DNA of 64,000 nucleotides from Candidatus Uhrbacteria bacterium (GTDB lineage Bacteria > Patescibacteriota > Patescibacteriia > UBA9934). A model generated the notes under the pieces. That model was not told the origin of the DNA. It worked only from the letters and a program-made list of their open reading frames with translations, and searched no databases. Shown here one piece after another: positions 3,140 through 31,987 of the stretch (positions are counted from its first letter, which is position 1; each line of letters opens with the position of its first letter). Location of the stretch: NCBI GenBank assembly GCA_943359525.1, contig CALRHV010000001.1, forward strand, positions 7,181 through 71,180, written 5' to 3'. Position numbers and translations under genes: made by a program.

Positions 3140-3350
3140 ATTGGCGATCCTCGAGTTCCGACCGGAGGGACTGATTTTCGATTTCACCGATGTTGTGTCG
3201 ACACGACATTTCATTTGCAAAAACACCAATGATTTTCACAATCAGATGTTGTGTCGACACAACATCCTTGATTTCGCAAAACGCACATACCAGGTCAGCC
3301 GACCACGTCAGTTGTTTGTATTTCCCGTCCATCCCGATCCACCCCTCCAA
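3140..3350. repeat. Repeat family copy 1 (approximate bounds): palindromic box tgttgtgtcgacacaaca x2 flanking a conserved 40-nt core, plus shared flanks
   Basis: Near-identical to 17745-17990; related to 49160-49370 and 61400-61640 (shared gatg-box-core-box architecture and 3' tail ccctccaaga.tcagttca). Confidence 0.8.
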
Positions 3351-7032: not shown

Positions 7033-8163
7033 TTAAAGCGATGCGATATTTTCTGCGGCGGTAACAGCGAACTGAATTCCTTGTTGAGTGAGAAGATATG
7101 TTCCGGCGCCAAACATGATTGCAACGTGAACAGCGAGAACACCTGCGAGAATTTTCTGGTGCCTCGTCATTGGTGTTGATTCCGATGGTTCTGATCCCGC
7201 GGTGAGCGTTATAACGCCGCGAATCAAATACACGTTAATGATCGCGAGTGCAAAGAAGACAAGAAGTGCAAGGATAAGGTGTGCTTGAAGTGCATAACCA
7301 ACGCCAATAAGTTCGCTTACAAAAAGCACAGAAAATGGAGCGCCAAGAAGTGACGCGAAGAGCGCGCCAGAAAGATATTTCAGTGTGGTGTTTGATTGAA
7401 CCACTGCAGAGCTTTGTGTGGAGTACCACAGCCCAGAATGCGCAACGGCCTGACCAACAAGATGAATAATTGCAGGGATGGTCCCTGCTGGACCAGCGCC
7501 GATCATGAACGCAACAAGGCCAATGTGCTGAACGCTGGAAATTGATAGAAGCTGTCGTTTCTTTTTAAACACCAATTTCACCACCGCCATCAGTATAATG
7601 AGCGCACCAAAGCCAAGAAAAAAATTGTTCGTCCATACTCCGTCGTCTGCCATCGCTCCGTCGGTAATCTGTTTTACGCGGAGAAGCGCAATGAAGAACA
7701 CCACTGGCGCTGCGCCGCCAACAAAGCTTGTGAAACGCGTTTTCATGAAAAAGATCCCGAATGACGAGAGCGTTGCGACCGCCACCACAATAAATGCCCA
7801 TTGGATATATTGTGACGTGAAGAGCAATGCAGCTCCAATAGTGAAGAGACCAACCGAACCAATGCACAACGCGAGAATTGCCTTCCGTGCTTTTTCGTCT
7901 GCCGCACGCTGGGCGTGAAGCGCGAGGCACGTTGCCGCAAGAACGGCTAGCGCAAATGTCAGTGCAAGAACAGCGATGTTATTAGTGAACGCGGCCGCGA
8001 CAACCGCGACAAGTCCGGCGAAGGTGACGGAAAGTTCAGAACGATGTGCTCGTGCTCCATTGATGGTGAGCGCAAGCGTCCCAACCGCGAGTATTCCAAT
8101 CAACACCAACTGGCACCACACAAGGATGTCAACGTGCCACACAGAAAGGAATGCGTTCAACAT
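7033..8163 (-). CDS. Proton-conducting membrane transporter family (PF00361-like; NuoN/MnhD-like) polytopic membrane protein
   Basis: About 12 TM helices; …SSVQHIGLVAFMIGAG…IIHLVGQAVAHSGLWY… resembles NuoL/M/N core. Confidence 0.5.
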   Translation of the reverse strand: MLNAFLSVWHVDILVWCQLVLIGILAVGTLALTINGARAHRSELSVTFAGLVAVVAAAFTNNIAVLALTFALAVLAATCLALHAQRAADEKARKAILALCIGSVGLFTIGAALLFTSQYIQWAFIVVAVATLSSFGIFFMKTRFTSFVGGAAPVVFFIALLRVKQITDGAMADDGVWTNNFFLGFGALIILMAVVKLVFKKKRQLLSISSVQHIGLVAFMIGAGPAGTIPAIIHLVGQAVAHSGLWYSTQSSAVVQSNTTLKYLSGALFASLLGAPFSVLFVSELIGVGYALQAHLILALLVFFALAIINVYLIRGVITLTAGSEPSESTPMTRHQKILAGVLAVHVAIMFGAGTYLLTQQGIQFAVTAAENIASL

Positions 8164-8172
8164 ATGAGGCGA

Positions 8173-9900
8173 TTAGCGACGAAGTTTTTCAAGCGCACAG
8201 TTCCACAGCGTTTTGCATCGATTCCCCACCGTCAGTCGTGCGACGATTTTTTCGCGACATGCTTCGATTGCTTCAAATGTGGGGACGCGATCCAGCCACG
8301 ATGCACGGAAATACCATGCGATGAGTGCAATTGCGCCAGTAAGGATACCGATGATTCCCATGCGCAACGTCCCCATTGCAGTGACGATGCCTCCGTTAAA
8401 CGTTCCCGCAGCGCTGGTAAGTGGATCAGCACCGATAGCAGCGAAAAGTTGCGGCAGCGCGAATCCGCTCACGAGTGCGAGGAATGCGAGCAGCACAATG
8501 GGAGTGAGTTGCGAATCGGTTGCCTCGGTGATGACCTTCTCCGATTCTGCTCGCGATGAACCAAGGAATACGCCGATGATCACGCGACCAACACTCACAA
8601 TCGACAACAGCACACAAAGATCAAAGATAACGAGGATAGCACCAGAGATAATTGCCAGCGGAAGCGCTATGTCGGGAAAAGCCCCCCAAAGTGTTGTGGC
8701 AAACATCCAGGCGCTCGTGAACGTTGCAAACGGCGGAAAGCCAATGGCACAGAGGAGAAGAATGAACGCAGCAATCGTTAGCTTGGGCATTTTTTCTGCA
8801 AGGCCTCCGGTATGGTTGATGTTCGATCCCACAATATCGCCGACGAGGAAGAGGCCCGATCCTGCGATAGCACTAACCGTAATCTGTACGAATGCCGCAA
8901 ACAGCATCACATTCATTGCCTCATAGATTGCGACAGCTTGGAACGCCATTGCACCGGCAACCATCGTTATTGCAACACCCATGCTCTGTAAACTGATATT
9001 ACTGAAGATGCGTTGAATGTTCTTTTCATTCAGCGCACAAATTGCGCCGCACACAATCGTCAATACACCAAGCAAAGCCACAGGAAGAGCGAACCAGATG
9101 GACAACGGCGGAAGAATGAACAGAATACACCTTACGAATCCGTAAAAGGCCACGCCAGAAAGCACTCCTCGGAATAACGCGCTGATATGTGCAGGAACGG
9201 TTGCGTGGACGTTGCGGAGCCAGCGATGCATCGGGAACAGGCCAATGGTGCTCGCGAAGCCAAAGAGCAACAGACCGTAGCCAACAGTGAGCTGAATTGG
9301 ATCGATTTGGCCAGCGAGATATGCGAGCGTGCCGAAGTCGCTAAACAACGCGCCGGAAGAAAGAATAAAGAAACCAGCAGTGAGTGCCGCGATACCGAGT
9401 TGCGAGATGGTCAGAAATTGCAGCGCGACCGACTTTTCCGATCGCGAAAAAACGAGAAAGAACACGGAGAACATCATTACGGCCCAGGAGGCAATGAAAC
9501 CGATAATGTTTCCGGAGATGAACACCCACTGTGCACCAATGACGAAAAGCGCGCTGAGGATTCCGACGTGACGAAGATGCGCGAGATTGTTTTGGTGCTT
9601 TGCTCCATACACCAACGCGTAGAGACCAGCCGCTGCGATCACAATCGATATCCCAACAAAAAAGATCGCACTGAAGCGATCCAACGCGATCGTCATCCCA
9701 TAGAACATCGGAACGGACATAGTGAACGGTGCTTCGGCGACGGCGCCGTATGCACCAGCGATTGCTCCTCCAATTCCTGAAAGGGCAAGGAGAAGCGAGT
9801 TCCATTTGAACGACATCGCCGGCTTAAGGAACGCCGACACCACAAGGGCAAGCACCGGAGCAACCATGGCAATATAGAGTGTATTCTCAAAAGGTGTCAT
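8173..9900 (-). CDS. NADH-quinone oxidoreductase subunit L/M or Mrp antiporter MnhA/D-like membrane protein (PF00361)
   Basis: 575 aa, more than 14 TM helices; …FPMHRWLRNVHATVPAHISALFRGVLSGVAF… matches the WLPDA..GPTPVSAL region of complex-I antiporter-like subunits. Confidence 0.65.
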   Translation of the reverse strand: MTPFENTLYIAMVAPVLALVVSAFLKPAMSFKWNSLLLALSGIGGAIAGAYGAVAEAPFTMSVPMFYGMTIALDRFSAIFFVGISIVIAAAGLYALVYGAKHQNNLAHLRHVGILSALFVIGAQWVFISGNIIGFIASWAVMMFSVFFLVFSRSEKSVALQFLTISQLGIAALTAGFFILSSGALFSDFGTLAYLAGQIDPIQLTVGYGLLLFGFASTIGLFPMHRWLRNVHATVPAHISALFRGVLSGVAFYGFVRCILFILPPLSIWFALPVALLGVLTIVCGAICALNEKNIQRIFSNISLQSMGVAITMVAGAMAFQAVAIYEAMNVMLFAAFVQITVSAIAGSGLFLVGDIVGSNINHTGGLAEKMPKLTIAAFILLLCAIGFPPFATFTSAWMFATTLWGAFPDIALPLAIISGAILVIFDLCVLLSIVSVGRVIIGVFLGSSRAESEKVITEATDSQLTPIVLLAFLALVSGFALPQLFAAIGADPLTSAAGTFNGGIVTAMGTLRMGIIGILTGAIALIAWYFRASWLDRVPTFEAIEACREKIVARLTVGNRCKTLWNCALEKLRR

Positions 9901-17744: not shown

Positions 17745-17990
17745 GATAAAAAAGTGCATTGTTGGCGATCCTTATGCTCCGACCGGCAGTTCAATTTCCA
17801 ATTTTGGCGATGTTGTGTTGACACAACATTTCGTGTGCAGAAATGCCAATGATTTTCACAATCAGATGTCGTGTCGACACAACATCCTCAATTTCGCAAA
17901 ACACACATGCCTGTCGCCGACGATGTCTGTCATTCGTTCGCCTCCGTCACCACGTCCCAACCCCCTCCAAAGATCAGTTTCAGAGCAGCC
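17745..17990. repeat. Repeat family copy 2 (approximate bounds)
   Basis: Aligns along about 240 bp with copy 1, including both tgt(c/t)gtgt(c/t)gacacaacat boxes. Confidence 0.8.
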
Positions 17991-20549: not shown

Positions 20550-21692
20550 TTAATTCGTTTCACTCGTCGTTACCGCTTTCCACGTTGGATGCATTGCTGC
20601 CAAGCAGAACCAGTAGCCGCGAACTGCTGGAATCTCGATCAGTGCGTGCTCTTCGTCGTTATTCTTCACATTCCATCCATCGGCGTACCATGCGCTTCCC
20701 GTTTCGTTATCCGTCAACCGCTTCTTCGCAAAATCGAACGAAAATGTGTGAACGTCACCATTCCTCGATTTCGTTTCGAATACGCGCACTGTGTCTGTTT
20801 CAAAATTATAGATGGCAATCACCGGAACTTCGCCGAGTTTTGCAGTCATGATTCCCGTTCCAGAAAGTGCGATTGTCGCAAACGCAAGACCATTCGTTCC
20901 ATCGGTGACGCCGTACGTAATCCACTTCGATGTGAAATCGGGGCTCGTGTGGTTAATTGGGAAATACAGTCCTTTGCTCGTATCGTAATTTCCGTATGGG
21001 TGACGAGTGTAGTCACGGGCAATACCCGTGTTTGTGGAAAGGACCAAGCCAGATGGATACAAATTTTTCCACACACTCCACGTCATCATCTGTGAAGGAA
21101 TGACCGCGAGGGATTCACCGATCCATGATCCTTGAATCGACTGTCCAGTCGCCTGGATCCAAAGCGATCCCGACTCCTCATCCTTTAACACGGTGTTGTT
21201 GTTATATACCTGTCCGGTTGCAGACAATGTTGCTGTGCCCATGTTGATGTGACGGTCATACACAACTCCCGTTCCGCAAAGCGGACAATATGTCACTGCA
21301 AAGCTCTGGCCACCGACCGAATCATTTACTACTTCATGCCAGTTCATGATTTGTACCGGGTAGAAACGATGCTGTCCTTCGATCTCGAGATCAATTCCCA
21401 TCAGTGAATCGGCAATCACCGAATCTGACGCAAGAACGGAATCGTATGTTGGATTCGTCAGTGCGGGAATGCCGCCTTCAACAACGCCGCTGTCGTACAA
21501 CTGATCACCCGGAACCAGCGATGTTACGCCGTCGCGAGTCACTGCCGATGTATACACACCGCCATCCAACACCGGCCACGCTGAAGCGTTCGCTTTACTC
21601 GACTGATACGCACTGAAGGCCAACGAAATGCCAGAAATAACCACGATCGCCCCAACGAACAGTCCAATATTTTGCTTTTGTGCTTGGGTCAT
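20550..21692 (-). CDS. DUF3179-family secreted/membrane-anchored protein
   Basis: N-terminal TM anchor, …YPVQIMNWHEVVND…VTYCPLCGTGVVYDRH…LWIQATGQ… signature. Confidence 0.6.
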   Translation of the reverse strand: MTQAQKQNIGLFVGAIVVISGISLAFSAYQSSKANASAWPVLDGGVYTSAVTRDGVTSLVPGDQLYDSGVVEGGIPALTNPTYDSVLASDSVIADSLMGIDLEIEGQHRFYPVQIMNWHEVVNDSVGGQSFAVTYCPLCGTGVVYDRHINMGTATLSATGQVYNNNTVLKDEESGSLWIQATGQSIQGSWIGESLAVIPSQMMTWSVWKNLYPSGLVLSTNTGIARDYTRHPYGNYDTSKGLYFPINHTSPDFTSKWITYGVTDGTNGLAFATIALSGTGIMTAKLGEVPVIAIYNFETDTVRVFETKSRNGDVHTFSFDFAKKRLTDNETGSAWYADGWNVKNNDEEHALIEIPAVRGYWFCLAAMHPTWKAVTTSETN

Positions 21693-21805
21693 AGATGGAA
21701 GGAGTGTAGCGGATAACCGGTTGATTGTAAAAGTTTTTCGCGGTATCTTTGGGTCTGATCAGGGAGCAAAACGTAAAAAAATTTATCTATTAGTGTCGTA
21801 AAACT

Positions 21806-22330
21806 ATGATCTCGATCAACAAGCCAGCACCAAGCTTTGAAAACATCACGTCGTACACCAAGGGCGAGTTTACGAAAACAAGCCTCAGCTCGTACAAAGG
21901 AGGCTGGGTGGTGCTGTTCTTCTACCCTCGCGACTTCACCTTCATCTGTCCAACCGAAATTAAGGGCTTCCAAAAGCACGAAGCGGACTTTGCCGCCCTC
22001 AACGCAAAAGTCATCGGCGCATCCACAGACAGCGAATGGAGCCACAAAGCATGGTTTGAAAAGGATCTCCCTGAAGTGGCCTACCCTATCCTTGCCGACA
22101 CAACGCAAAAAGTTTCCCGCGACTACGGCGTGCTCAACGAAGACGACGGCAGTTCCGATCGCGGCTTGTTTATTATCGATCCAGAAGGTGTAGTGAAATA
22201 CGCCCTAGTCTCTGCCGGCTCCGTCGGCCGATCAGTCAAAGAAGTGCTCCGCGTTCTCACAGCACTTCAATCCGGCGAACTCTGCCCAATGGAATGGGAG
22301 CCGGGCGAGAAAACATTGGGAAAGGCGTAA
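21806..22330 (+). CDS. Typical 2-Cys peroxiredoxin (AhpC/Tsa family)
   Basis: FTFICPTE peroxidatic Cys motif and resolving Cys near C-terminus (GELCPMEW). Confidence 0.92.
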   Translation: MISINKPAPSFENITSYTKGEFTKTSLSSYKGGWVVLFFYPRDFTFICPTEIKGFQKHEADFAALNAKVIGASTDSEWSHKAWFEKDLPEVAYPILADTTQKVSRDYGVLNEDDGSSDRGLFIIDPEGVVKYALVSAGSVGRSVKEVLRVLTALQSGELCPMEWEPGEKTLGKA

Positions 22331-22344
22331 ACGTCACATATCAT

Positions 22345-22383
22345 CAGTAAAAAACTGGAGCCACAACAGGCTCCAGTTTTTTA
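22345..22383. terminator. Bidirectional Rho-independent terminator (prx / relE convergent)
   Basis: aaaaaactggagcc-acaaca-ggctccagtttttt. Confidence 0.8.
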
Positions 22384-22641
22384 CACCGACCGATAGATAT
22401 CGTGATCACCAACAGCAAGAAGGATTATTCCGTCAGTCGATCGTTCAAAAACAATTCTGGTTTTATAGTTTACCGAAAAACTCCACAAGTCATGAAGATT
22501 CCCTTTTAATTTATGTACTTTTAACGTGCTGTGATGTTCGGGGTTGCGAAACATCTCAACCTTCTCATAGACATCTTGTCGAAGATCTTCCGGCAAAGAA
22601 CTCGTCATTTTTATAAATTGCTTCGTAAACTGAATTCGCAT
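22381..22641 (-). CDS. Type II toxin, RelE/ParE superfamily
   Basis: 86 aa; …KVHKLKGNLHDLWSFSVNYKTRIVFERSTDGIILLAVGDHDIY… is the RelE/ParE fold signature. Confidence 0.8.
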   Translation of the reverse strand: MRIQFTKQFIKMTSSLPEDLRQDVYEKVEMFRNPEHHSTLKVHKLKGNLHDLWSFSVNYKTRIVFERSTDGIILLAVGDHDIYRSV

Positions 22642-22644
22642 ACG

Positions 22645-22866
22645 TTATGAAACCGCTTCAACGAGGGCCTTCAGATCTCCTTCGTAAAGCTCACCATTCC
22701 GGGCTTGTCGTTGCGAAATCAACACTGCGTTTAAAGCCTCTTCCTCAGAAAGCCGAATAATCGCTTTTCGCACAACTTCGGCTTTTGTTTCTGCAAAACC
22801 CATCTTTACCAAGCGCTCAATGATATTCTCCAGTGTTGGAGTAAGTGGTACAGAAAGTGTAGACAT
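22645..22866 (-). CDS. Type II antitoxin (RHH/ParD-like), cognate of downstream toxin
   Basis: 73 aa, gene immediately upstream of and 4 nt from toxin; N-terminal beta-strand plus helices. Confidence 0.65.
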   Translation of the reverse strand: MSTLSVPLTPTLENIIERLVKMGFAETKAEVVRKAIIRLSEEEALNAVLISQRQARNGELYEGDLKALVEAVS

Positions 22867-22965
22867 ATAGTAATGTTATGTCATCATATTACATTGCTAA
22901 CACGGTGAAGTCAAACGTGCTCCTCATTTACCTCATCTCCGCCGGCAGGGAGTGCCGATCGGTAA

Positions 22966-23060
22966 AGAAAGCGATGCGTGTACTGACGGCACTTCAATCC
23001 GGCGAACTCTGCCCAATGGAATGAGAACCAGGAGAGAAGACATTAGGAAAGGCGTAAACG
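22966..23060 (+). pseudogene. Diverged duplicate (about 85% identity) of the last about 95 nt of the peroxiredoxin gene, with its stop codon
   Basis: Direct repeat of 22239-22333; translates …VLTALQSGELCPME* vs native …VLRVLTALQSGELCPMEWEPGEKTLGKA*. Confidence 0.8.
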
Positions 23061-23073
23061 AAAACACGGTCAC

Positions 23074-23170
23074 CCCAATTGTTCAGGATGACCGTGCGAG
23101 TGGTCACCCCTATCTTTCGGGATGACGTTGTAAGTGTCACTCCTATTGCGTTGGAGTGACCGTGTTTGCT
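23074..23170. repeat. Array of three consecutive related hairpins (stems cacggtcacc/ggtgaccgtg-like)
   Basis: acacggtcacccc…ggatgaccgtg / gtggtcacccc…gggatgacg / gtgtcactcc…ggagtgaccgtgt; lies in the 3' region of gene 23179..23895. Confidence 0.6.
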
Positions 23171-23178
23171 GCCTTGGC

Positions 23179-23895
23179 CTAGGACTTTTTGGCGTCGATG
23201 GCCTTCTGCAGGGCGGCCAGCCCCTCAAACTTCATAGCCTTGGGTGCCTTCTTCGCTTCGGCCTTTTTGGCGACCGCCTTCTCCTTTTCCTTCGCCATCT
23301 TGATTGCGCGGGCCTCATCGGTGATCTTCTTGGCCTGACCGGCTTCGAGGAACCCGTGACGCACCATGCTTTCGCGGTAGCTCCGGTAGGATCCGGCCAG
23401 CTCGTCATTCTTGGCCATGCAGATCGAGCGCAGGTGCCGCTCGGCCGCTTCGGCATAGGTCTCGACACGCACCCGGTTCTGGGACTGGGACCACCGGACG
23501 ATGAGCACCGGTCGCTTCGTCATCTGGGAATAGTCGAGGAGCTTGCGCGCCTGATTCTCCCCGGAGTCCGAACGCCGTTTCATCTCGTGGTAGGCCTCGG
23601 TCGCGGCGTCGTCCGGCTTGCCGTACTGGCTCAGGATGGCAAATGCCACATCCCAGGCCTCCTTCTCCTTCCCGCCGTCAAGCAGGTCGTAGAAGTGGAA
23701 CGCGAGGTTCCACACGGTGTTGCGGCTGATCGACATACGACGACCGAACTCTGCGCCGAGCTTCTTCTCCGGACAGCAGATGAACCCACGCACAAAGTCG
23801 AAACGGCCGTGATCCTTCCCTTCGCGGGCCTTGAGGTTGGGGTGAATGAGGACGCCGAGCTTGCCGGCGTTGAGGGAGGGCTTATTGTCGGACAT
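23179..23895 (-). CDS. Hypothetical protein with C-terminal Lys/Ala-rich histone-H1-like tail; gene is about 60% GC vs about 50% for the surrounding genes
   Basis: Tail …MAKEKEKAVAKKAEAKKAPKAMKFEGLAALQKAIDAKKS; marked local GC elevation. Confidence 0.55.
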   Translation of the reverse strand: MSDNKPSLNAGKLGVLIHPNLKAREGKDHGRFDFVRGFICCPEKKLGAEFGRRMSISRNTVWNLAFHFYDLLDGGKEKEAWDVAFAILSQYGKPDDAATEAYHEMKRRSDSGENQARKLLDYSQMTKRPVLIVRWSQSQNRVRVETYAEAAERHLRSICMAKNDELAGSYRSYRESMVRHGFLEAGQAKKITDEARAIKMAKEKEKAVAKKAEAKKAPKAMKFEGLAALQKAIDAKKS

Positions 23896-23976
23896 GGTGA
23901 ACTCCGTATCTCTACTGATGAATGGAACGTGACAGGCGGGATATGACCGATTGCCGTTGGAACGGCTTTCAGATCA

Positions 23977-24020
23977 ACAAACTACTATACCACAAAATCA
24001 GCTCCTCGTCAAGTGACGAT
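23977..24020 (-). terminator. Rho-independent terminator downstream of the 841-aa gene
   Basis: 9-bp stem aatcagctc/gagctgatt followed on minus strand by TTTTGTGG. Confidence 0.55.
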
Positions 24021-24076
24021 GAGCTGATTCTTGGCTAATATTAGCTAAAAGTAATGTTAATATATCCTTCAGTTCA

Positions 24077-26602
24077 CTATCGTGCTCGCACCAAACCATC
24101 CAAAAGACGACGATCAAGAGAATCTGCTTTATTACTTTTCCTGAACCAGTCTGCGAATTGATGAATCACAGCCTGCTTCGTCGGACCACGCTGAAGCTGG
24201 ATTTGACGTTGGTATACGCTTAAGGAATCCATAATCCCCTTCAATGCAATCTTCTTGAGAATACGGTGGTTCGCAATAAACTCAAGTCCAGGAATTACAT
24301 CCGGTCTTCCTTCGACATAATTATGTAATTCCATCGTTGAACCCGTCCAATTTTTTGGACGTACCTGTCCTTCCTTATGACGAACCAGGGGTTCAGCAGA
24401 AGCAAAAATTCCATTCCAAATATCTTCGTGACCATGAACAGCGTCACTCGAAAATAATGAAAGCGCATCTGTTTTATTCACATCCGTCCGTATACCAATC
24501 CTATCCCACATCTCCATAAACGAACCGTCCTTCTGTTTTTTTAATAACGGCATCCCCGTATCCGGATCAATACGTAATTTGCATTCTTCTTCCAGAATAA
24601 ACCCATGCTTCTGATTGCGGTTTACATCATGAGAAAGTTTTCGCGCAAAAAGATATTCCCCAATAAACTCTTTCTCCGGGTAAAGTTCTGCAAATCGATT
24701 TTGAATCGTTCCCGAAATACCGTTATCAATCAAAATGATTCGCTGTGCGTTTTCTACACCGAGCCCTCTCAATTGTTCTCGCACAAGATCGTCGCTTGAT
24801 TTCACTGCGGACGCTCGAGATACTGGAATGTATTGAATCCTGTCCGCAGTGAGTCCAGGAAATCGTTCCGGAAAAAGTTTAAGTAATTGTCGTTGAATAA
24901 GAAACATCGCAATAGCGTCTCGACCAAGGCAAAGACTCATAGTTCCCTTTGGGCTCTCAGCCAAGCGTTGCAATGTATGTTCGGCAAACTGAATGACTAA
25001 AGGACCATATTTGTCTCGACTCATTTCATACACTCGCTCGGCAAATGGCCGAAGGGCCTCCGGAGTGATAGTTTTTTTCACGCGATCGAAATATTCATTT
25101 GCACCGCCAGTGAGGTATTCTCGCTGAGTTTGCAGTGCGATATCTGCATACTTCTCAGAATGAATGTCCATTGATTGGAACGCTTTGTTTTGAATCAGCG
25201 CGTTTGGGCGTTTCAGAACTACGCCTTTTGCCCCAATACGCTGCGGAGCCTTTTGGTCGTTTTCTGAATGATCACCAACGTGAACCAGCGCTTCCGGAGC
25301 CACACCAAGTCTCCGGCAGGCTTCTCGAAAAATTGTACCATTTGGATCCTTTGGGGATTTCAACATGCCGTGTTCAGATGACACGATAACCTCATCAAAA
25401 TAGTCAAAAAGTCCAAAGCGTTTCAACAAACGCTCAACAGATTCTTGACTATATGAAAAGTTTGAAATGACCGCGAGCTTTTTTCCACGTGATCGCAAAT
25501 CCTCAAGCGTCGATTTTGCGCCTGGCATTACCACAGCTGTCGCCCCATCCGCTAAGCAGTACACACCTTCAAGCTCTTGAGCCAATGCCCGAATCTGTAC
25601 TGGGTCGATAGGACGCCTTTCGTTCAGCGCAATTTTTTGAATAACAAGCTCGAGAGCATCCACTTGCTTATAGTCTCGCAACGTCTGTTCCCTTCGCAGT
25701 CGAAAATCGTGTAGCACACTATCTCGAAGCTTCCGAAGGTCCTTCTCAGAAATTCCAAAACCCTTTTCACGTAAAAAAGCAGTTGCATCACTATTCATTC
25801 GTTCTTGACGCTCAGCCGAATTGGAGGAGAATTGTACAAGCGTATCGAACATGTCATACGTTACCGCCTTTACTCGCTCACCTGCACGGGCAACATACGG
25901 AAGGATATCTGCGTGCTCCTGAATATTCTGAGGAAACTTTGCTTCACGCAATTCCTGCAGCACTTCGTCACGATCTGTTCTCACTCGCGCCGCGTATCCA
26001 GAAACGGATCGCGCAATATTCATCATTTCTGCGCGATCAATAAACGATCTACGTGGCTGACCATCAGCGCGCATCGGCCATTCAAGACCTTTCATTCCTA
26101 CCGCCTCAAGCTGATGATACGACTCAAGGATATCCCGAATTCGCTCCTTATGATGCTGTACGTGCGCTGGAGTGATGCCATCCAATGTAATAACTCGTTC
26201 ATACGCAACCTTTTTTCGCGCATGAAATGCCTGAAGATCCTCCTCTCGTCCGCGTGCGGGAAAGCACAGCGCAATAATTTCAATGTGCTTTTGTGGCGAT
26301 CCTCTCATTTCCTGAACAACTGCAATAGCTGCTTCGCGCCCAATCGATCCACGCTCTACTGCCACGGACAACGGAACAGAAAATACCGCGAGACTCGTTC
26401 TCTCCTGCAAAAAGCGGGCAACAACAGCTTGCTCACCTTCCATGAGAAACGTATCCATTGATTTTTTCAAACACCGCCGTGATTCCTGCTCAAAGCCACC
26501 TTCCTGCACAACACACTGAACATCCTGAATATGCCGTTCCTTTCGAACAGTTTCACCCTTATTCACTGTCACGATTTTTGAATCAGCAAATCCAATAGCC
26601 AT
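24077..26602 (-). CDS. Large multidomain protein with central HAD-superfamily hydrolase domain flanked by unknown N- (about 230 aa) and C-terminal (about 370 aa) regions
   Basis: HAD motif I VTYDMFDTLV, motif II ISNFS, motif III/IV K…GDHSENDQ. Confidence 0.7.
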   Translation of the reverse strand: MAIGFADSKIVTVNKGETVRKERHIQDVQCVVQEGGFEQESRRCLKKSMDTFLMEGEQAVVARFLQERTSLAVFSVPLSVAVERGSIGREAAIAVVQEMRGSPQKHIEIIALCFPARGREEDLQAFHARKKVAYERVITLDGITPAHVQHHKERIRDILESYHQLEAVGMKGLEWPMRADGQPRRSFIDRAEMMNIARSVSGYAARVRTDRDEVLQELREAKFPQNIQEHADILPYVARAGERVKAVTYDMFDTLVQFSSNSAERQERMNSDATAFLREKGFGISEKDLRKLRDSVLHDFRLRREQTLRDYKQVDALELVIQKIALNERRPIDPVQIRALAQELEGVYCLADGATAVVMPGAKSTLEDLRSRGKKLAVISNFSYSQESVERLLKRFGLFDYFDEVIVSSEHGMLKSPKDPNGTIFREACRRLGVAPEALVHVGDHSENDQKAPQRIGAKGVVLKRPNALIQNKAFQSMDIHSEKYADIALQTQREYLTGGANEYFDRVKKTITPEALRPFAERVYEMSRDKYGPLVIQFAEHTLQRLAESPKGTMSLCLGRDAIAMFLIQRQLLKLFPERFPGLTADRIQYIPVSRASAVKSSDDLVREQLRGLGVENAQRIILIDNGISGTIQNRFAELYPEKEFIGEYLFARKLSHDVNRNQKHGFILEEECKLRIDPDTGMPLLKKQKDGSFMEMWDRIGIRTDVNKTDALSLFSSDAVHGHEDIWNGIFASAEPLVRHKEGQVRPKNWTGSTMELHNYVEGRPDVIPGLEFIANHRILKKIALKGIMDSLSVYQRQIQLQRGPTKQAVIHQFADWFRKSNKADSLDRRLLDGLVRAR

Positions 26603-26604
26603 AC

Positions 26605-29600
26605 CTACACATCGAGAGTCAAAATTTGAGCAATCTCAACTGCGCGATCGATGTCCTCTTGCCTCGTCATATCCGGATGCTCAGAGAGGTACAGAGACAC
26701 GATATCAACGATTTCGTCACGTTCAGTGTCAGTTGCTAACAAGGAAACTCTTTCATTTACAGCGGCGCCGTGCATGGTTCGCGCAACGTCGTACTCAACG
26801 TGGCCAAAGTGCCGCATACGTTCAACTTCTCCAACCATCTTCATGAATGCCTTTTGCTCAGATGCCGGAGTTTTCTGGAAAAGTACCTGCAGTAATTCAA
26901 CCATCATTTCCTGAACTTCTACGGGCTCATCGCCAAACTTTTCCGACACAAATGTGCGAATGGATTTCGCGTTCTTTTCCCTTGATTTCGAACGTCCAAC
27001 TTCAGCCCCCGAAATTGGACTCTCATCTCCAGATTCTGTTCCGCTTTCAACACCAGAAATCACTGGCTCAAATTCAGATCCTCCCGGCGGCAGATCGTCC
27101 CCACCCGGTGGCGGCATGCGAGGTGTCCTTCTCTTCCTTGGCTCCATTGGTGTGCGAACGTTGCCCGGAAGGAACCATGGAACCGCGACTGGTGGGACGT
27201 TCGGGCCGGTTGCAAAGTCAATTTGAGTGACGTGCTGGTTAACACTTTCGCTGATATCGGTGGAGGTGATTCCGGAATGCACTCCTTCGCCCTGTGCTGT
27301 TGCAAGAATATTAAAGTGGTTCACGCCGTGCGCGTCGAAGCCCTTTGAGATTCCGATCTCAGCGTGGTGATACAGCGGAACAACCTTACCGTGTTCAATA
27401 CGGAAGAAGGTCTTGCCGATATCGGAATCCGGATCAATGTGGAACTGACCATGCTGATCACACAGAACCTCAATGACACTATTCTGCGAACCACTGTTCA
27501 TTGTGAGCAAAAGGCGAAGTTTGCGCTCCACAATTTCCTTAGGTGCGTCTTCACTGAGCGCGTCGTGGAAGGAACCATCCGACGTCATATAGCCCGCGGA
27601 CATCACAATCTGGCCGTTTGCATCCAATCCGGTTTCGTTTACTCCACCCCATTCTAATTTCAGCTCGTTCCAATCTGCCCCAAGCCACTTTTGCAGCGCA
27701 TCAGAAAAATGCATTGGTGTGTCATTGTCCATCCAATGGTCGCGATACACTTTTTGCATTGCATGATGACGCAACCAATCCCACGTGCTTTCGGTGCTCG
27801 TCACCGTTGATGACGAATTCACCCACTGATCGGACTCAACAATATTTGCGCTAGCACCTCGCAACGTTGCCTCCGATGCAGCGTCGAGATGACCGAATTC
27901 GTTGATGTGCAATCCCGAAGCAATTGTACGATGATCGGCAACCGACTCAAGAACGTAGCTTCCGTCGGCTTGAGGAACGAGATCGGTTCCCGCTGGGGTG
28001 GTGAACATTCCCCCGCCAATCGTCTCCACATTCGCTGGTCCGACCGCCGCAACAGGCGCATTGTCAAAGTACGCCATAAGTGCTCGTCCAGCACTTGCAA
28101 TAGTCGTGTCTGCTCCCGAAACAAAATGGCTCCAAAGATCATGAACAACCGTTCCAACGACGGCACCAATCACCATCGTCGTTGCGCCACGCTTCAACGC
28201 GACACGATTCGACCACGAAGCAAAAGCGCTATGTTGCTTCTGAACAGCGCTTTCTTTTCCGTACAACGCACCTTCGCTCATCGCGAGTCTTTCATTGAAC
28301 ACCTCAGTGAAATTCCCCATCGCTTCAGCATATCTCGATCGAAGTGCAGCCTTCAGTTGTGCTCGAGCAAGATCGAGATCCATTCGCTCAACCTCGGCTT
28401 CGGCAACGTTTGTATATTTCAGCAAATCAACCTTTTCGCGATCGCTGATGCGAATCCTTGCCTCGATGTCCGCAAGCGCAGACATCGCGTCTCTGTCGTC
28501 AACATCACCACGTAATTCGCGACCGCTCAGGAATCCACGGGCACTTTCCGCGAGCCCCTTTGCACTTTCACGAGCAAGTTCAAACTGCTCCATCTCGGCA
28601 CGCCGAGGCTGAACCGCGCGACCGCTATCCAATTCCTTAATCTCATTCTCAATCGCGTGTCGCTCCATGACATTCCACCACTTGAGGTTTCCCATCTGAT
28701 TGAGCAACTCCGATTTCCTCGCGAGGAGGTCGTCATTCCGCGTTTCCCCACCAAGCGCCATCTGACGCTCATGGAGCGATCGTTCGCGACCCAGTCGGCT
28801 CTTTTCTTTATACGCGCTGTACGCACCAGTCACAACCAAGGACGATCCAGATGATGCGAGCGCAGCAGCACCAGCTTTCACACGTCCGTAAATTCCACCA
28901 ACTACCCAGGCCGTGCCAAGCGCCACAGAAATCTCATTGTGAAACACGTTCAAAACGCCAGAACCAACTCGTGTTGTTGAGCCGTATCGTTGTAATCCGT
29001 CGAGCGCCTTATCGAGAAGATTCCTGTCTCGTTCCGTTCGTGCACCAAGTTTTGCTTTACCGATAACAATTTCAAGATCGATATCGAGATTCGCAATACC
29101 ACCAGCGTGCGCTGCGTGTTGACGAACTTGTTCGGCGAGCTTTTCCAAATTGTCGGCGTACATCACGCCACGGCCCTTTGCGTCGCCAGCGAGTTTGTTG
29201 GCTGCTGCGAAAATCTCATCTTTTCTTGCGTTGAGTTCACCCGCATCCATTTCTGGATTCGTCGCGTACTCACGAACGAGTGCCTCAAGATCCTTTTTGA
29301 CCGCCTTCTCTGCAGCACTGTCGCCAAAGACCTTCTTCTTTTCCGCAGTCTTCCCTTCTCCATGAAGGAATCCATCGTACTCGGTAACAAACCGATCAAC
29401 AACAGCACCGGTTGCTCGGCGATGCGCGTCGCGGTCGAAATTATCGGACGCGTACAGGTTCTTCTCGTTAAGAATCTTGGCGCGCGATCGCGAGATGGCG
29501 ATTTGACGATAGATTTCGTAGCAAATGTTGTGTTTGAAAATCTTTGCAAAAAATCCCGCATCTATTTTTTCAGCGTGCAACGACTCTTCCGCAGTGTCGC

Positions 29601-30099
29601 GAGCCCTATCCTCGACAGCTTCCGAAACATCCACAGCGCCGTATCGTAATTTCAATGGCACCTTTGGAGCCTCGTCATCCTCAAGCTCGGCGACCACTGG
29701 CGTTGGCGGCACTCGTGTTGTACCCGTTGGCACAACCTCGGGACCTTCTGGAACCGGATCCCCGTCAACCGATCCAATCAACCGCGCGGCAATCTCCACG
29801 CGCTCAAGATCAAGCGAGGCAATGGAACGGTGAAGTTTTCCGTTCTCAATGAGCACCGGAGCTTCGTCGTCGCCCTTGCTGACAGCAACAATTTTCCAGT
29901 CTTCGCCGTCGAGATGAATAATGTCGTTCTTTCCAATGCGCCGCGCAAAACGTGCCTGTGCCTCCGCGCTGGCTTCTGCAGATTGATTGTAGTCTGTCCA
30001 TCCTGCGTGGACCGCCTTCAAGACGCGATCCAACATACTCATCGTTGGTCGCGATTCTCTGGACGATTCTGGCGAATGAGATCGTGCTGGTGCAACCAT
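26605..30099 (-). CDS. Giant hypothetical protein (1164 aa), coiled-coil-rich N-terminal half, one predicted TM segment mid-protein, Pro/Gly/Ser-rich linker near C-terminus
   Basis: Long uninterrupted ORF, 2 nt from downstream gene; no recognisable catalytic motifs. Confidence 0.6.
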   Translation of the reverse strand: MVAPARSHSPESSRESRPTMSMLDRVLKAVHAGWTDYNQSAEASAEAQARFARRIGKNDIIHLDGEDWKIVAVSKGDDEAPVLIENGKLHRSIASLDLERVEIAARLIGSVDGDPVPEGPEVVPTGTTRVPPTPVVAELEDDEAPKVPLKLRYGAVDVSEAVEDRARDTAEESLHAEKIDAGFFAKIFKHNICYEIYRQIAISRSRAKILNEKNLYASDNFDRDAHRRATGAVVDRFVTEYDGFLHGEGKTAEKKKVFGDSAAEKAVKKDLEALVREYATNPEMDAGELNARKDEIFAAANKLAGDAKGRGVMYADNLEKLAEQVRQHAAHAGGIANLDIDLEIVIGKAKLGARTERDRNLLDKALDGLQRYGSTTRVGSGVLNVFHNEISVALGTAWVVGGIYGRVKAGAAALASSGSSLVVTGAYSAYKEKSRLGRERSLHERQMALGGETRNDDLLARKSELLNQMGNLKWWNVMERHAIENEIKELDSGRAVQPRRAEMEQFELARESAKGLAESARGFLSGRELRGDVDDRDAMSALADIEARIRISDREKVDLLKYTNVAEAEVERMDLDLARAQLKAALRSRYAEAMGNFTEVFNERLAMSEGALYGKESAVQKQHSAFASWSNRVALKRGATTMVIGAVVGTVVHDLWSHFVSGADTTIASAGRALMAYFDNAPVAAVGPANVETIGGGMFTTPAGTDLVPQADGSYVLESVADHRTIASGLHINEFGHLDAASEATLRGASANIVESDQWVNSSSTVTSTESTWDWLRHHAMQKVYRDHWMDNDTPMHFSDALQKWLGADWNELKLEWGGVNETGLDANGQIVMSAGYMTSDGSFHDALSEDAPKEIVERKLRLLLTMNSGSQNSVIEVLCDQHGQFHIDPDSDIGKTFFRIEHGKVVPLYHHAEIGISKGFDAHGVNHFNILATAQGEGVHSGITSTDISESVNQHVTQIDFATGPNVPPVAVPWFLPGNVRTPMEPRKRRTPRMPPPGGDDLPPGGSEFEPVISGVESGTESGDESPISGAEVGRSKSREKNAKSIRTFVSEKFGDEPVEVQEMMVELLQVLFQKTPASEQKAFMKMVGEVERMRHFGHVEYDVARTMHGAAVNERVSLLATDTERDEIVDIVSLYLSEHPDMTRQEDIDRAVEIAQILTLDV

Positions 30100-30103
30100 A
30101 CGA

Positions 30104-30403
30104 TTAGCTTAAGTATGACGTACGGAAATCCATGAGCGTTCGTGCGAGCACTTCTTGGTAGTTTGGCACATTGCTGACGAAAAACTCGCGAACAATATCC
30201 GGTTCAGCATCCGCATCAAGGAGATCGTTCAGCTCCTCAACCTTGTCTGTTTCGAGCAAGGCAACCATTTCTGCGTTCAAACGTTCGCCGATACGCGTGA
30301 GAAGATCCGCACGAAGCTCGGCAAGAACCGCCTCGTCAACCGATGCAAGCCCACGTTCCACGAGCAAATTTTCTACGAACTGTTCAAGCGTTGGAGCTGC
30401 CAT
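30104..30403 (-). CDS. Small acidic all-helical hypothetical protein, first gene of the giant-protein operon
   Basis: About 100 aa, pI acidic (…LNDLLDADAEPDIVREFF…), 4-nt gap to giant ORF. Confidence 0.45.
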   Translation of the reverse strand: MAAPTLEQFVENLLVERGLASVDEAVLAELRADLLTRIGERLNAEMVALLETDKVEELNDLLDADAEPDIVREFFVSNVPNYQEVLARTLMDFRTSYLS

Positions 30404-30481
30404 AGCAAAAAGCAAAGAGTATTGCTTCAAGTATAACAAATGCACACCTCATCGATGTGATGAGGTGTGCATGGTTCCGGT

Positions 30482-31987
30482 CTACATTCGTTCTACCAGC
30501 TCCACCAAAGTTCGCACGCCGTGACCGGTTCCGCCTTTACCGAGGTAACTCGCCATCGGCTTTTCTGCGAAGGCGGGGCCCGCGATGTCCAAATGAACCC
30601 ACGGCTGACCGTCGACAAATTCTTCGAGGAAAAGACCAGCAGTGAGCGATCCGCCGTATCGCGACGTTGGGATGTTCCGAAGATCTGCGATATCGGATTC
30701 GATGAGTGATCGATACCGTTTCTCCAAAGGCATGCGCCACATTTTCTCGCCAGCGTCGTCGGCAGAATCGAGAACCGACTGTGCGAGCTCGTCATTGTTG
30801 CTCATCAATCCGGTGATCTCCTCACCGAGCGCAACGACACAGGCGCCGGTCAGCGTTGCGAGATCCACCATAGCGGTCGGTTCAAGCTTCTTTGCATACG
30901 TCAGCGCATCGGCCAGCGTAAGGCGACCTTCAGCGTCGGTGTTAAGGATTTCGATCGTTTTTCCGTTGCTTGCTTTTACGATATCGCCTGGTCGAATCGC
31001 TTTACCGGAAGGCATGTTCTCGACGGCCGCAACGATGCCGTGCACTTCGCAGCGAGGTTGAAGCTGGCCGAGAACCGTGAAGAATCCAAGTACTGCCGCA
31101 GCGCCGGCCATGTCGCACTTCATGGTCATCATTCCGTCGCCTGGCTTCAGCGACAATCCACCGGAGTCGAACGTGACGCCTTTACCGATGACGGCTAGGC
31201 GCTTTCGGCTCGATCGTTCTGGAGTGTAGGTAAGATGCAAGAACTTCAACGGTTCATCGGATCCATTCCCTACCGCGACGTACGAACCCATGCCGAGCTC
31301 TTCGCATTCTGCGCGATCGAGAACCTTCAACGAGAAATTCTTTCCCGCTTCCTTCACGATGCGCTCCGCAGCCTCGGCGAGTGCAGACGGCGTCATCACT
31401 TGCGCTGGCATATTCACAAGATCACGCGCAACAGCAACGCCACCAGCAATCGCACAGCCTCGCTCGACGGCTTTCCGAACGCGAAGCACGTCGCGACCCT
31501 CGCGAATCACCAACGTCATTTCCTTCATGCGTTTTGCGCCGTTCTTTTCCTTGTACGTATCGAACGCGTAGTCAGCAAGCTGTGCTGCAACCACCATCGC
31601 TTCCGCAACATCCGCGACATCGCCTTCATCGGACACGGGGATTTCGACCGCGAGCGTCTTGGCTCCAAATCGGCGGGTGCAAGCAATCGCGGTGCCAATC
31701 ATTTCGCGAGCAGATTCGAGCGTGGCGTCTTTCATTAATCCCAGACCGATCACCAAGATGTGGTGGTGCGCAGCATCGTGGACGTCGATCGCAACAGCCT
31801 CTCCAACCTTGCCCACGAACTCTGTTGCTTTCATCGATCGCGCCGCAGTCTTTCGGACCGATTCTGGCAATCGCGCAACGATCGATTCCGTCGAGAATCC
31901 CTCGCCAGCAAACACCGGAAGTACGAGCACCTCGGCTTTTGCGGAAAACAGATCCATTTTTTCTCCAAGGATATTCATAGCATTCAT
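30482..31987 (-). CDS. pepA: Leucyl aminopeptidase (M17 family)
   Basis: NTDAEGRLTLADAL signature, 501 aa. Confidence 0.92.
   Translation of the reverse strand: MNAMNILGEKMDLFSAKAEVLVLPVFAGEGFSTESIVARLPESVRKTAARSMKATEFVGKVGEAVAIDVHDAAHHHILVIGLGLMKDATLESAREMIGTAIACTRRFGAKTLAVEIPVSDEGDVADVAEAMVVAAQLADYAFDTYKEKNGAKRMKEMTLVIREGRDVLRVRKAVERGCAIAGGVAVARDLVNMPAQVMTPSALAEAAERIVKEAGKNFSLKVLDRAECEELGMGSYVAVGNGSDEPLKFLHLTYTPERSSRKRLAVIGKGVTFDSGGLSLKPGDGMMTMKCDMAGAAAVLGFFTVLGQLQPRCEVHGIVAAVENMPSGKAIRPGDIVKASNGKTIEILNTDAEGRLTLADALTYAKKLEPTAMVDLATLTGACVVALGEEITGLMSNNDELAQSVLDSADDAGEKMWRMPLEKRYRSLIESDIADLRNIPTSRYGGSLTAGLFLEEFVDGQPWVHLDIAGPAFAEKPMASYLGKGGTGHGVRTLVELVERM

Follow-up and report, generated by a model that had tools for sequence, protein, structure and literature searches.

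A Repeated Peroxiredoxin 3' End Around a Toxin-Antitoxin Cassette at the Border of a Variable Region in Candidatus Uhrbacteria

Introduction

Genomic islands are found at the 3' ends of tRNA or protein genes, flanked by attachment-site (att) direct repeats, and their integrase-less derivatives are known as cis-mobilizable elements (CIMEs). In insertion-duplication (Campbell-type integration), which has been used in pneumococcal genetics, circular DNA enters the chromosome through a single homologous crossover. A third process, in which the 3' end of a gene is displaced, has been proposed for type VI secretion system (T6SS) and Rhs loci, and involves a homologous anchor, an illegitimate end and an old 3' end that is moved downstream (Kirchberger et al. 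2017, PMC5361080). For C-terminal displacement at the effector-immunity loci of Rhs, contact-dependent inhibition (CDI) and T6SS systems, the proposed mechanism is homology-facilitated illegitimate recombination (PMC5361080; Jackson et al. 2009, as cited in it). Here, these systems are compared with a locus in a 64-kb stretch of DNA (contig CALRHV010000001.1; hereafter the window, meaning the whole stretch analysed) from a Candidatus Uhrbacteria genome of the candidate phyla radiation (CPR, or Patescibacteria), in which the 3' end of a 2-Cys peroxiredoxin gene (prx) occurs twice, on both sides of a small toxin-antitoxin (TA) operon.

The reading that we prefer, with a probability of roughly 60%, is that the second copy of the prx 3' end was left behind by an integrase-independent, homology-anchored and imprecise recombination with DNA from a related Uhrbacterium, that is, by 3'-end displacement. 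With the displacement described at Rhs, CDI and T6SS loci, the window locus shares a conserved gene part that would serve as homologous anchor, a new 3' end accompanied by a toxin/protective-protein pair, an old 3' end kept downstream as a homologous orphan, the lack of an integrase, and recurrence at one locus with varying cargo. It departs from them in that the gene concerned is a housekeeping peroxiredoxin with a conserved 3' end and not a polymorphic toxin with a variable one, in that the TA operon is separate and convergent and does not form the tip of the displaced gene, and in that the host belongs to the CPR and the mechanism is read from sequence only.

Islands and CIMEs offer a similar picture of a gene 3'-end direct repeat around accessory cargo, with the target gene intact and a TA pair as possible stabiliser. 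However, no recombinase was found here, each event has its own repeat borders, the cassette moves without the repeats, and what is repeated is 130 nucleotides (nt) of diverged coding sequence instead of a short identical core with recombinase-binding arms. Insertion-duplication would also give an intact gene, cargo and a 5'-truncated second copy, with the crossover expected in the longest identical stretch, which fits a 35-nt core present in both copies; it nevertheless requires a circular intermediate carrying a prx 3' fragment, and none was observed.

The Repeated 3' End of prx

The features of the locus, in coordinates of the window, are the following:

21806..22330, plus strand: intact 2-Cys peroxiredoxin gene (prx), 174 amino acids (aa); Pfam AhpC-TSA (PF00578) 130.8 bits, and NCBIfam peroxiredoxin models
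22204..22333, plus strand: repeat copy 1, prx codons 134-174, the stop codon and 3 nt (last 127 nt of prx + 3 nt)
22262..22296, plus strand: 35-nt exact block, equal to 22989-23023, which holds states specific to this genome (CCAATGGAA)
22347..22380, bidirectional: intrinsic terminator, A6-CTGGAGCC-loop-GGCTCCAG-T6, common to prx and the toxin gene
22381..22641, minus strand: toxin gene, 86 aa, RelE/YoeB/YafQ fold
22387..22891, minus strand: TA homology block, 86% identical at the nucleotide level to L163-L167, another Uhrbacteria lineage (related loci are given by L numbers)
22645..22866, minus strand: antitoxin gene, 73 aa, ParD/CopG-like ribbon-helix-helix (RHH) protein, its stop codon 3 nt ahead of the toxin start
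22886..22914, minus strand: promoter-like site of the TA operon, TTGACT-17-TAATAT, by sequence reading, running from 22914 to 22886
22931..23060, plus strand: repeat copy 2, a 5'-truncated prx pseudogene fragment from a diverged allele

A repeat search and MAFFT alignment pair 22204-22333 with 22931-23060 as an ungapped direct repeat of 130 nt, 80% identical and spaced 727 nt apart. An earlier note on this DNA had claimed a repetition of about 95 nt, which is borne out by the alignment at the greater length; the 95-nt part itself (22239-22333 against 22966-23060) is 84% identical (80/95). When random 130-mers of the window are compared with their next 2 kb, the best ungapped identity is 51%, so the 80% repeat is far above chance. 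The longest exact run between the copies is the 35-nt block, a segment in which relatives are 74-97% identical to one another and which could be either a crossover point or a gene-conversion patch. Between the copies lie, in this order, the terminator, the toxin gene, the antitoxin gene and the promoter-like site, so that the repeat brackets a bidirectional terminator and a TA pair, just as had been described. The arrangement is identical in two independent assemblies, L001 (ENA) and L002 (GCA_964685005.1), so that an artefact of assembly is excluded. The identical peroxiredoxin is encoded on four contigs, and each of them carries the TA pair, with the same arrangement throughout.

The gene itself belongs to the typical 2-Cys peroxiredoxins (AhpC/Prx1 type), since the AhpC-TSA domain, the peroxidatic and the C-terminal resolving cysteines are all present. 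As read from the translation, the peroxidatic Cys lies in FTFICPTE and the resolving Cys160 in GELCP, within the repeated segment. Its product is 88-96% identical in the closest Uhrbacteria genomes (L003-L012), and the 1-cysPrx_C family (PF10417) gives a weak match on the copy-2 peptide. In L087 the gene (2297-2875) is longer, encoding 192 aa with about 18 extra residues near the N-terminus (…DYQPEYDIDSIDEHGMMEYTHHGFW…) that are absent from the other orthologues seen.

A 6-nt direct repeat, CCTCAT-tta-CCTCAT (22922-22936), stands at the very point where the unique spacer meets copy 2, and may be a microhomology trace of the join.

The Second Copy as an Allele of prx

Copy 2 reads ...VLTALQSGELCPME and then TGA (23022-23024), where prx has TGG (Trp164); apart from this W164* codon, EPGEKTLGKA* is kept in frame, with the same stop as in prx. 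Recoding of this TGA as Trp or Gly was considered and rejected, since TGA is the stop of 5 of the 40 genes in the window and is thus an ordinary stop codon here.

Twenty-two codons have changed between the copies, 14 of them synonymously and 8 non-synonymously. On the 3' side of the exact core there are six changes, of which five are synonymous and one is the nonsense codon; random change would be expected to give about 21% synonymous changes in these last codons. In addition, the 'A' states of copy 2 (GAACCAGG..AAGACATTAGG) are those normally seen in L003, L005 and L007, copy 1 being the unusual one. Differences that are mainly synonymous, combined with base states of other lineages, are allele-like and not decay-like. 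Judging from this pattern, copy 2 is the remnant of another, once-functional prx allele, on which purifying selection acted until recently. The earlier note had correctly recognised in it a stranded prx 3' end, but had regarded it as decaying through mostly G-to-A changes, a view that the counts do not sustain: G>A makes up 5/15 differences in the 95 nt and 6/26 in the 130 nt, and only the last 37 nt, taken alone, have a majority (4/6).

The damage in copy 2 is confined to a few sites. Codons 139-141 have turned from SVG into REC, so that GSVGRS, a conserved motif kept by nearly all relatives, reads GRECRS; codons 146-148 are altered as well, and W164* is the last of these hits. A chimeric copy 2, in which the 5' arm had decayed and the 3' part was fresh, was tried as an explanation and dropped, as the two parts are not significantly different in their synonymous and non-synonymous counts (Fisher p = 0.35).

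The Toxin-Antitoxin Cassette

The chromosomal type II operons YefM-YoeB, DinJ-YafQ, RelBE and ParDE, of the RelE/ParE superfamily, are the closest described relatives of the cassette, which has in common with them an antitoxin gene that comes first, a toxin gene within 3 nt of it and an antitoxin probably of the RHH type, as well as an 86-aa toxin with a RelE/YoeB fold (TM 0.76) and conserved C-terminal His/Tyr residues. Unlike them, it scores under the cut-offs of the hidden Markov models when a single sequence is used, it pairs a ParD-like antitoxin with a RelE/YoeB-like toxin, and the named members of its family are nearly all from Patescibacteria.

The toxin was modelled with AlphaFold2 from 37 homologues (pLDDT 94.3, pTM 0.84), and the best PDB matches of the model in Foldseek are YoeB, RelE and YafQ (TM 0.69-0.76, probability 1.00). 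Its Pfam scores stay below the cut-offs (HigB-like 20.8 bits vs 27, ParE_like 18.6 vs 24.4, YafQ 18.2 vs 30), and so do those in NCBIfam, where TIGR02385 (RelE/StbE) reaches 23.8 against 27.9; for the YoeB profile, too, the score is just under the threshold, and the profile match is at the superfamily level only, RelE/ParE. Residues K27, K41, R62, H80 and Y83 are invariant in the 37 homologues, H80 and Y83 being located in the C-terminal helix, in positions that we take to be like those of YoeB His83/Tyr84. Taking these features together, the toxin may belong to the mRNA-interferase branch, as opposed to the ParE gyrase poisons. A total of 335 toxin homologues were found, and those with a named source are nearly all from Patescibacteria.

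The antitoxin matches the ParD family model TIGR02606 over residues 4-46 with 26.5 bits, against a cut-off of 46.2. A Pfam scan of the antitoxin itself gave no match, while among its homologues several have PF03693 or bear the name ParD, CopG or RHH in their sources. A small inverted repeat over the -10/start region is a putative TA operator. The terminator shared with prx has folding energies of -26.5 and -29.5 kcal/mol on its two strands, with z-scores of -10 and -7, and GAGCC/GGCTC-type terminators are also present 3' of prx in relatives that lack the TA pair.

The 73-aa and 82-86-aa partners are adjacent, co-oriented and conserved as a pair across different contexts, as expected of a type II TA operon. 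In other CPR genomes the pair is located between a radical SAM gene and a histidine kinase gene, between ruvC and the ATPase gene of a type II secretion system (T2SSE), between infB and truB, and in a TA-rich islet. Flanking gene-fragment repeats were looked for at sites of the family in L168, L175, L178, L181, L188, L192 and L184, and none was found. The 727-bp unit gave no match when compared with phage genomes, the plasmid homologues of the toxin are only 32-35% identical and come from cyanobacteria, and an Rfam scan of 21500-24200 gave no RNA family.

The pair is absent from the related Uhrbacteria prx loci that were compared in detail (L003-L040), including those of the closest relatives, with 88-96% prx identity. 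The cassette had been described as inserted in the earlier note, and its accessory nature is supported by this distribution. Two types of cassette are distinguished in what follows: TA1, the window type, and TA2, which consists of a 75-aa antitoxin and a YafQ-like toxin of 89-90 aa.

The homology block shared by TA1 of the window and L163 ends 40 nt before copy 2 and begins about 50 nt after copy 1. The repeats are thus not carried along by the cassette, and the acquisition of the TA pair and the duplication of prx may be separate events. Beyond 22891 the alignment of the window with L163 does not rise above shuffled sequences (1124/2000 reach its score), and a junction between TA1 and the prx fragment common to the two loci was for this reason dropped. 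At third codon positions, the window and L163 have an identity of 0.70 in TA1 (161 codons) and of 0.52 in prx (79 codons; Fisher p = 0.006), the latter value being about the level found between any two lineages of the clade. TA1 is therefore less diverged at silent sites than prx, which points to an exchange between the lineages after their split and indicates a horizontal transfer of TA1. As regards TA2, the cassettes of L163 and L184 are as diverged as host genes, with a third-position identity of 0.53 vs 0.61.

Stranded prx Fragments in Other Lineages

When about 100 related prx loci were compared with themselves in search of stranded prx fragments, these appeared beyond the window in two further Uhrbacteria lineages only, L005/L083 and L163-L167, both of the same tight subclade.

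In L005/L083 the order is prx, its terminator, two unrelated genes on the opposite strand (392 and 131 aa), a 93-nt prx fragment and a gene X. The L005 fragment corresponds to codons 143-174 and is intact, with 19 nt differences from the intact gene that change only 2 aa. Fragment and gene X are collinear with the insert-free prx-X junction of L102 (69% over 403 nt), so the fragment is a prx 3' end that is still joined to its natural downstream neighbour, and L102 provides an empty-site analogue for the L005 event. It had been anticipated in the earlier note that a duplication without TA genes in related genomes would speak against an inserted cassette. L005/L083 are indeed duplicated without TA genes, but other cargo lies between the copies.

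In L163-L167 the order is prx, terminator, TA2, TA1 and a prx fragment (nt 315-369), and the interval 1-1503 of L163 holds both cassettes in tandem. An exact block of 24 nt (prx nt 315-338) is located here inside otherwise decayed sequence.

The fragments start at different places, prx nt 399 in the window, 433 in L005 and 315 in L163, and the exact blocks occupy nt 457-491, 478-497 (the longest identical block of L005, 20 nt, overlapping the core of the window) and 315-338, respectively. Copy 2 of the window resembles copy 2 of L005 no more than either resembles the intact genes.

Origin of the Repeat

Fragment borders that vary, cargo that varies and a second copy that looks like an allele argue together for a one-sided homologous recombination independent of an integrase, and differing fragment starts are to be expected of illegitimate joins. 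It is proposed that DNA from a related Uhrbacterium would recombine at prx with homology on one side only. In variant a, the homologous anchor would lie in prx or to its left, with an illegitimate join inside the recipient prx, which is 3'-end displacement by homology-facilitated illegitimate recombination. In variant b, the anchor would lie among the conserved genes on the right, the left end being ragged, and copy 2 would be the left tip of an imported island. In variant c, a circularised fragment with a prx 3' piece would enter by a single crossover (insertion-duplication), the 35-nt core being the crossover point. Variants a and b would need a later short gene-conversion patch to account for this core, and such a patch is made plausible by the 24-nt exact stretch of L163 in decayed sequence. 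The outcome would be an intact prx with its terminator, then cargo, and then a 5'-truncated prx 3' end that is still joined to the hairpins and coding sequence of the downstream gene orf238 (described below). The fragment of the window does abut the terminator array of orf238, and genes of the orf238 family are found downstream of prx in L087 and L184. Only products with a whole prx would persist, since the resolving Cys160 lies inside the repeated part. The slot would then be filled by a TA operon of about 0.5 kb, with a RelE-fold toxin and a ParD-like antitoxin, moving horizontally among lineages, and addiction to it may penalise loss of the interval by recombination between the prx copies. 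The incoming DNA may have been taken up by competence, as the literature on Patescibacteria would suggest, competence and pilus genes having been reported as common in this group (PMC12455944). The sequences themselves show the repeat, the allele-like divergence of its copies, an accessory and horizontally transferred TA cassette, the return of the arrangement with other cargo, and no recognisable recombinase; the recombination route, the incoming side, uptake by competence and the stabilising role of the TA pair are inferred.

Several points weigh against this reading. The phenomenon is seen in three lineages only, and the L163 contigs end before the remainder of their prx fragment. An insert-free strain of the window species was sought among the four contigs with the identical peroxiredoxin and was not found. 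The synonymous excess, for the window alone, is moderately significant (estimated p about 0.02 against an expectation of 40%), and the comparison of synonymous and non-synonymous counts between the 5' and 3' parts of copy 2 reaches only the p value of 0.35 given above. The sequence does not separate the variants of the route, and donor and recipient cannot be assigned: segment-wise identity to 13 relatives, tried for such an assignment, gives no clear phylogenetic signal and is uninformative with segments of 34-58 nt. Finally, an exact core of 35 nt amid 18-34% divergence also resembles a site-specific core.

This last resemblance leads to the alternative that a site-specific element entered the 3' end of prx, the two copies being attL and attR and the integrase having been lost or supplied in trans, so that a CIME-like TA islet remains. 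Direct repeats that bracket cargo beside an intact prx, the 35-nt core with the overlapping 20-nt block of L005, and a copy 2 whose 5' part is non-conservative at GSVGRS, like an arm never used for coding, are all compatible with it. The absence of an integrase had been noticed earlier and stands: 38 open reading frames (ORFs) across the window were searched for domains of integrases, transposases and other recombinases without a match, and no recombinase was seen among the genes called or read in the L005, L163 and L184 intervals. Moreover, the prx fragment starts at another point in each lineage, the exact block of L163 is elsewhere (nt 315-338), the L005 cargo is unrelated, the block shared with L163 stops short of both copies, so that the proposed att arms do not travel with the TA pair, and elsewhere in CPR the TA family sits between housekeeping genes without flanking repeats. 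This explanation is thus quite unlikely. From the integration into the prx 3' end that the earlier note had put forward, the accessory TA pair, the intact gene, the stranded 3' end and the different alleles of gene and remnant are retained, these last being expected if incoming DNA supplied or displaced the 3' end, while integration at a specific site finds no support.

It might also be supposed that the structure is old and vertically inherited, the ancestor of the window, L163 and L184 having had prx, TA2-TA1 and a prx pseudogene of almost full length. Different parts would then have been lost in different lineages, and short conversion tracts from the functional gene would have held stretches of the pseudogene identical to it. 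TA cassettes occupy the same slot in the three lineages, with both types in tandem in L163; short exact patches (35 nt in the window, 24 nt in L163) lie inside diverged sequence; L163 may also keep prx nt 82-116 (2/500 shuffles reach the score); there are weak hints of common derived states in the L163 and L184 flanks (14/1000 shuffles); and TA2 is as diverged as host genes (0.53 vs 0.61 at third positions). Against such an ancestor stand the significantly lower silent-site divergence of TA1 relative to prx, the non-significant homology of the window and L163 beyond 22891, a fragment in L184 without significant prx similarity, and the second copies of the window and L005, each at least as near to intact genes as to the other. 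Besides, the closer relatives L003, L004, L006 and L102 lack everything, so that several independent losses would be required. We regard this scenario as improbable, though one to be kept in mind. The least probable account is an in-place tandem duplication of the prx 3' end, with random decay of copy 2 and an unrelated TA insertion between the copies. A simple direct repeat and a nonsense codon are what it would leave; the differences, however, are mostly synonymous (14 vs 8 codons in the window; 19 nt and only 2 aa in L005), copy 2 has states of other lineages and is not a degraded copy 1, and the homology stops at the stop codon + 3 nt, where lineages also cease to align. On these alignments, duplication in place followed by decay is disfavoured in the window and clearly excluded for L005.

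As an extension of homology-anchored recombination, the prx 3' end, the terminator and the TA operon, or the TA operon with a prx-derived arm, might form an integrase-free selfish unit, homing to prx through its homology arm, host RecA and natural DNA uptake, and ensuring its own retention through the TA pair. This idea is unlikely; if it were true, the unit would represent a minimal class of 'recombination-hitchhiking' mobile element in CPR bacteria.

The Variable Region Downstream of prx

To the right of copy 2, the window holds the following features:

23064..23160, minus strand: three stem-loops, 3' end/terminator of orf238, adjoining the stop codon of copy 2
23179..23895, minus strand: orf238, an orphan gene with 58% G+C in a genome of about 50% G+C
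24077..30099, minus strand: rest of the variable region, an 841-aa HAD-domain protein and an 1164-aa protein without known domains, their presence varying among relatives
30107..31987, minus strand: conserved right border, a DUF5663 gene and an M17 leucyl aminopeptidase gene

On the left-hand side, synteny is kept in Candidatus Uhrbacteria metagenome-assembled genomes, with an rsmI-like methylase gene, a DUF3179 gene and the divergently transcribed prx. In L004 and L006, prx and the DUF5663/aminopeptidase genes are separated by about 0.7 kb; L003 has about 4.4 kb there, taken up by one giant gene, and the window has 7.9 kb. On the strength of these comparisons, prx marks the left, conserved edge of a variable region prone to recombination in the Uhrbacteria clade. 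When 22331-30254 is set against L003-L008, the giant protein is seen to evolve fast, having 1164 aa here and 1246-1481 aa elsewhere, and in some cases its C-terminus is glycosyltransferase-like.

The earlier note had predicted an empty site in which a single prx is followed directly by the sequence from 23061, and no exact case of it occurs among the loci of relatives. In L007 prx is followed by the HAD gene after 58 bp, in L004 the gap is 0.7 kb, and in L087 a gene of the orf238 family lies within about 115 nt of prx.

L184, a more distant Uhrbacterium, has the same backbone of prx, orf238 homologue, HAD gene and giant gene, with TA2 in the slot (7434-8314, between the prx terminator and the orf238 terminator; 75-aa antitoxin and 89-aa YafQ-like toxin). 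Since this backbone is shared, orf238, the HAD gene and the giant gene are old parts of it, and the gap between the convergent terminators is a slot for TA cassettes. To the right of TA2, L184 has a 62-codon ORF fragment with its own terminator, which bears only a weak resemblance to the L163 flank; its reading as a decayed prx pseudogene was discarded, the DNA alignment being at shuffle level with no Pfam match, and is not claimed.

No Pfam or NCBIfam match was obtained for orf238, and only two homologues (64-67%) are detectable among 5.8 billion proteins, both in the same position beside the HAD gene. An orf238 homologue holds this position in L184, and two genes of the family lie downstream of prx in L087. 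In public gene calls, a 270-aa ORF on the opposite strand (23134-23946) is annotated at this place, which probably hides the orf238 family. The stem-loops have near-identical stems (GTCACCCC-N8-GGGATGAC and GTCACTCC-N9-GGAGTGAC), with a minus-strand folding energy of -59 kcal/mol (z -6.8), and one copy is present behind the orf238 homologue of L087 (3987-4010). This array is more elaborate than a plain terminator.

Other repeats were observed in the window. An intergenic element of 118 nt occurs twice (3174-3291 and 17794-17911; 86% identical), each copy being palindromic with 51-nt arms that are 76% complementary. A 40-nt sequence (…TCGTCATTGCGAGGAGGGTAATCCCGACG…) is present as an inverted pair (37480-37519/49137-49176), 95% complementary and 11.6 kb apart, and a related TCGTCATTGCGAGCG…GCAATC motif is located 3' of prx in L015 (about 5000-5035). 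Sequences of the TCGTCATTGCGAGGAGGGTAATCCCGACG type may constitute a dispersed repeat family of these genomes.

Conclusions and Perspectives

The locus is a CPR example of a known recombination scar at the border of a hotspot, together with a mobile, Patescibacteria-rich TA of the RelE/ParD type, and it does not define a new class of element. It has to be kept in mind by those who annotate genomes that a 3'-end direct repeat around cargo does not, by itself, prove an integrative element.

CPR/Patescibacteria are not yet genetically tractable, and gene gain in their tiny genomes is known mostly from statistics. The window offers base-level examples of a housekeeping gene that anchors a gene-exchange hotspot, of stranded foreign-allele fragments that record past recombination, and of small TA cassettes passed between lineages into one slot without any recombinase. 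The locus agrees with a scenario in which DNA is taken up by competence and then recombines through homology on one side, and it suggests that TA cassettes can fix duplications, including insertion-duplications, that would otherwise be unstable.

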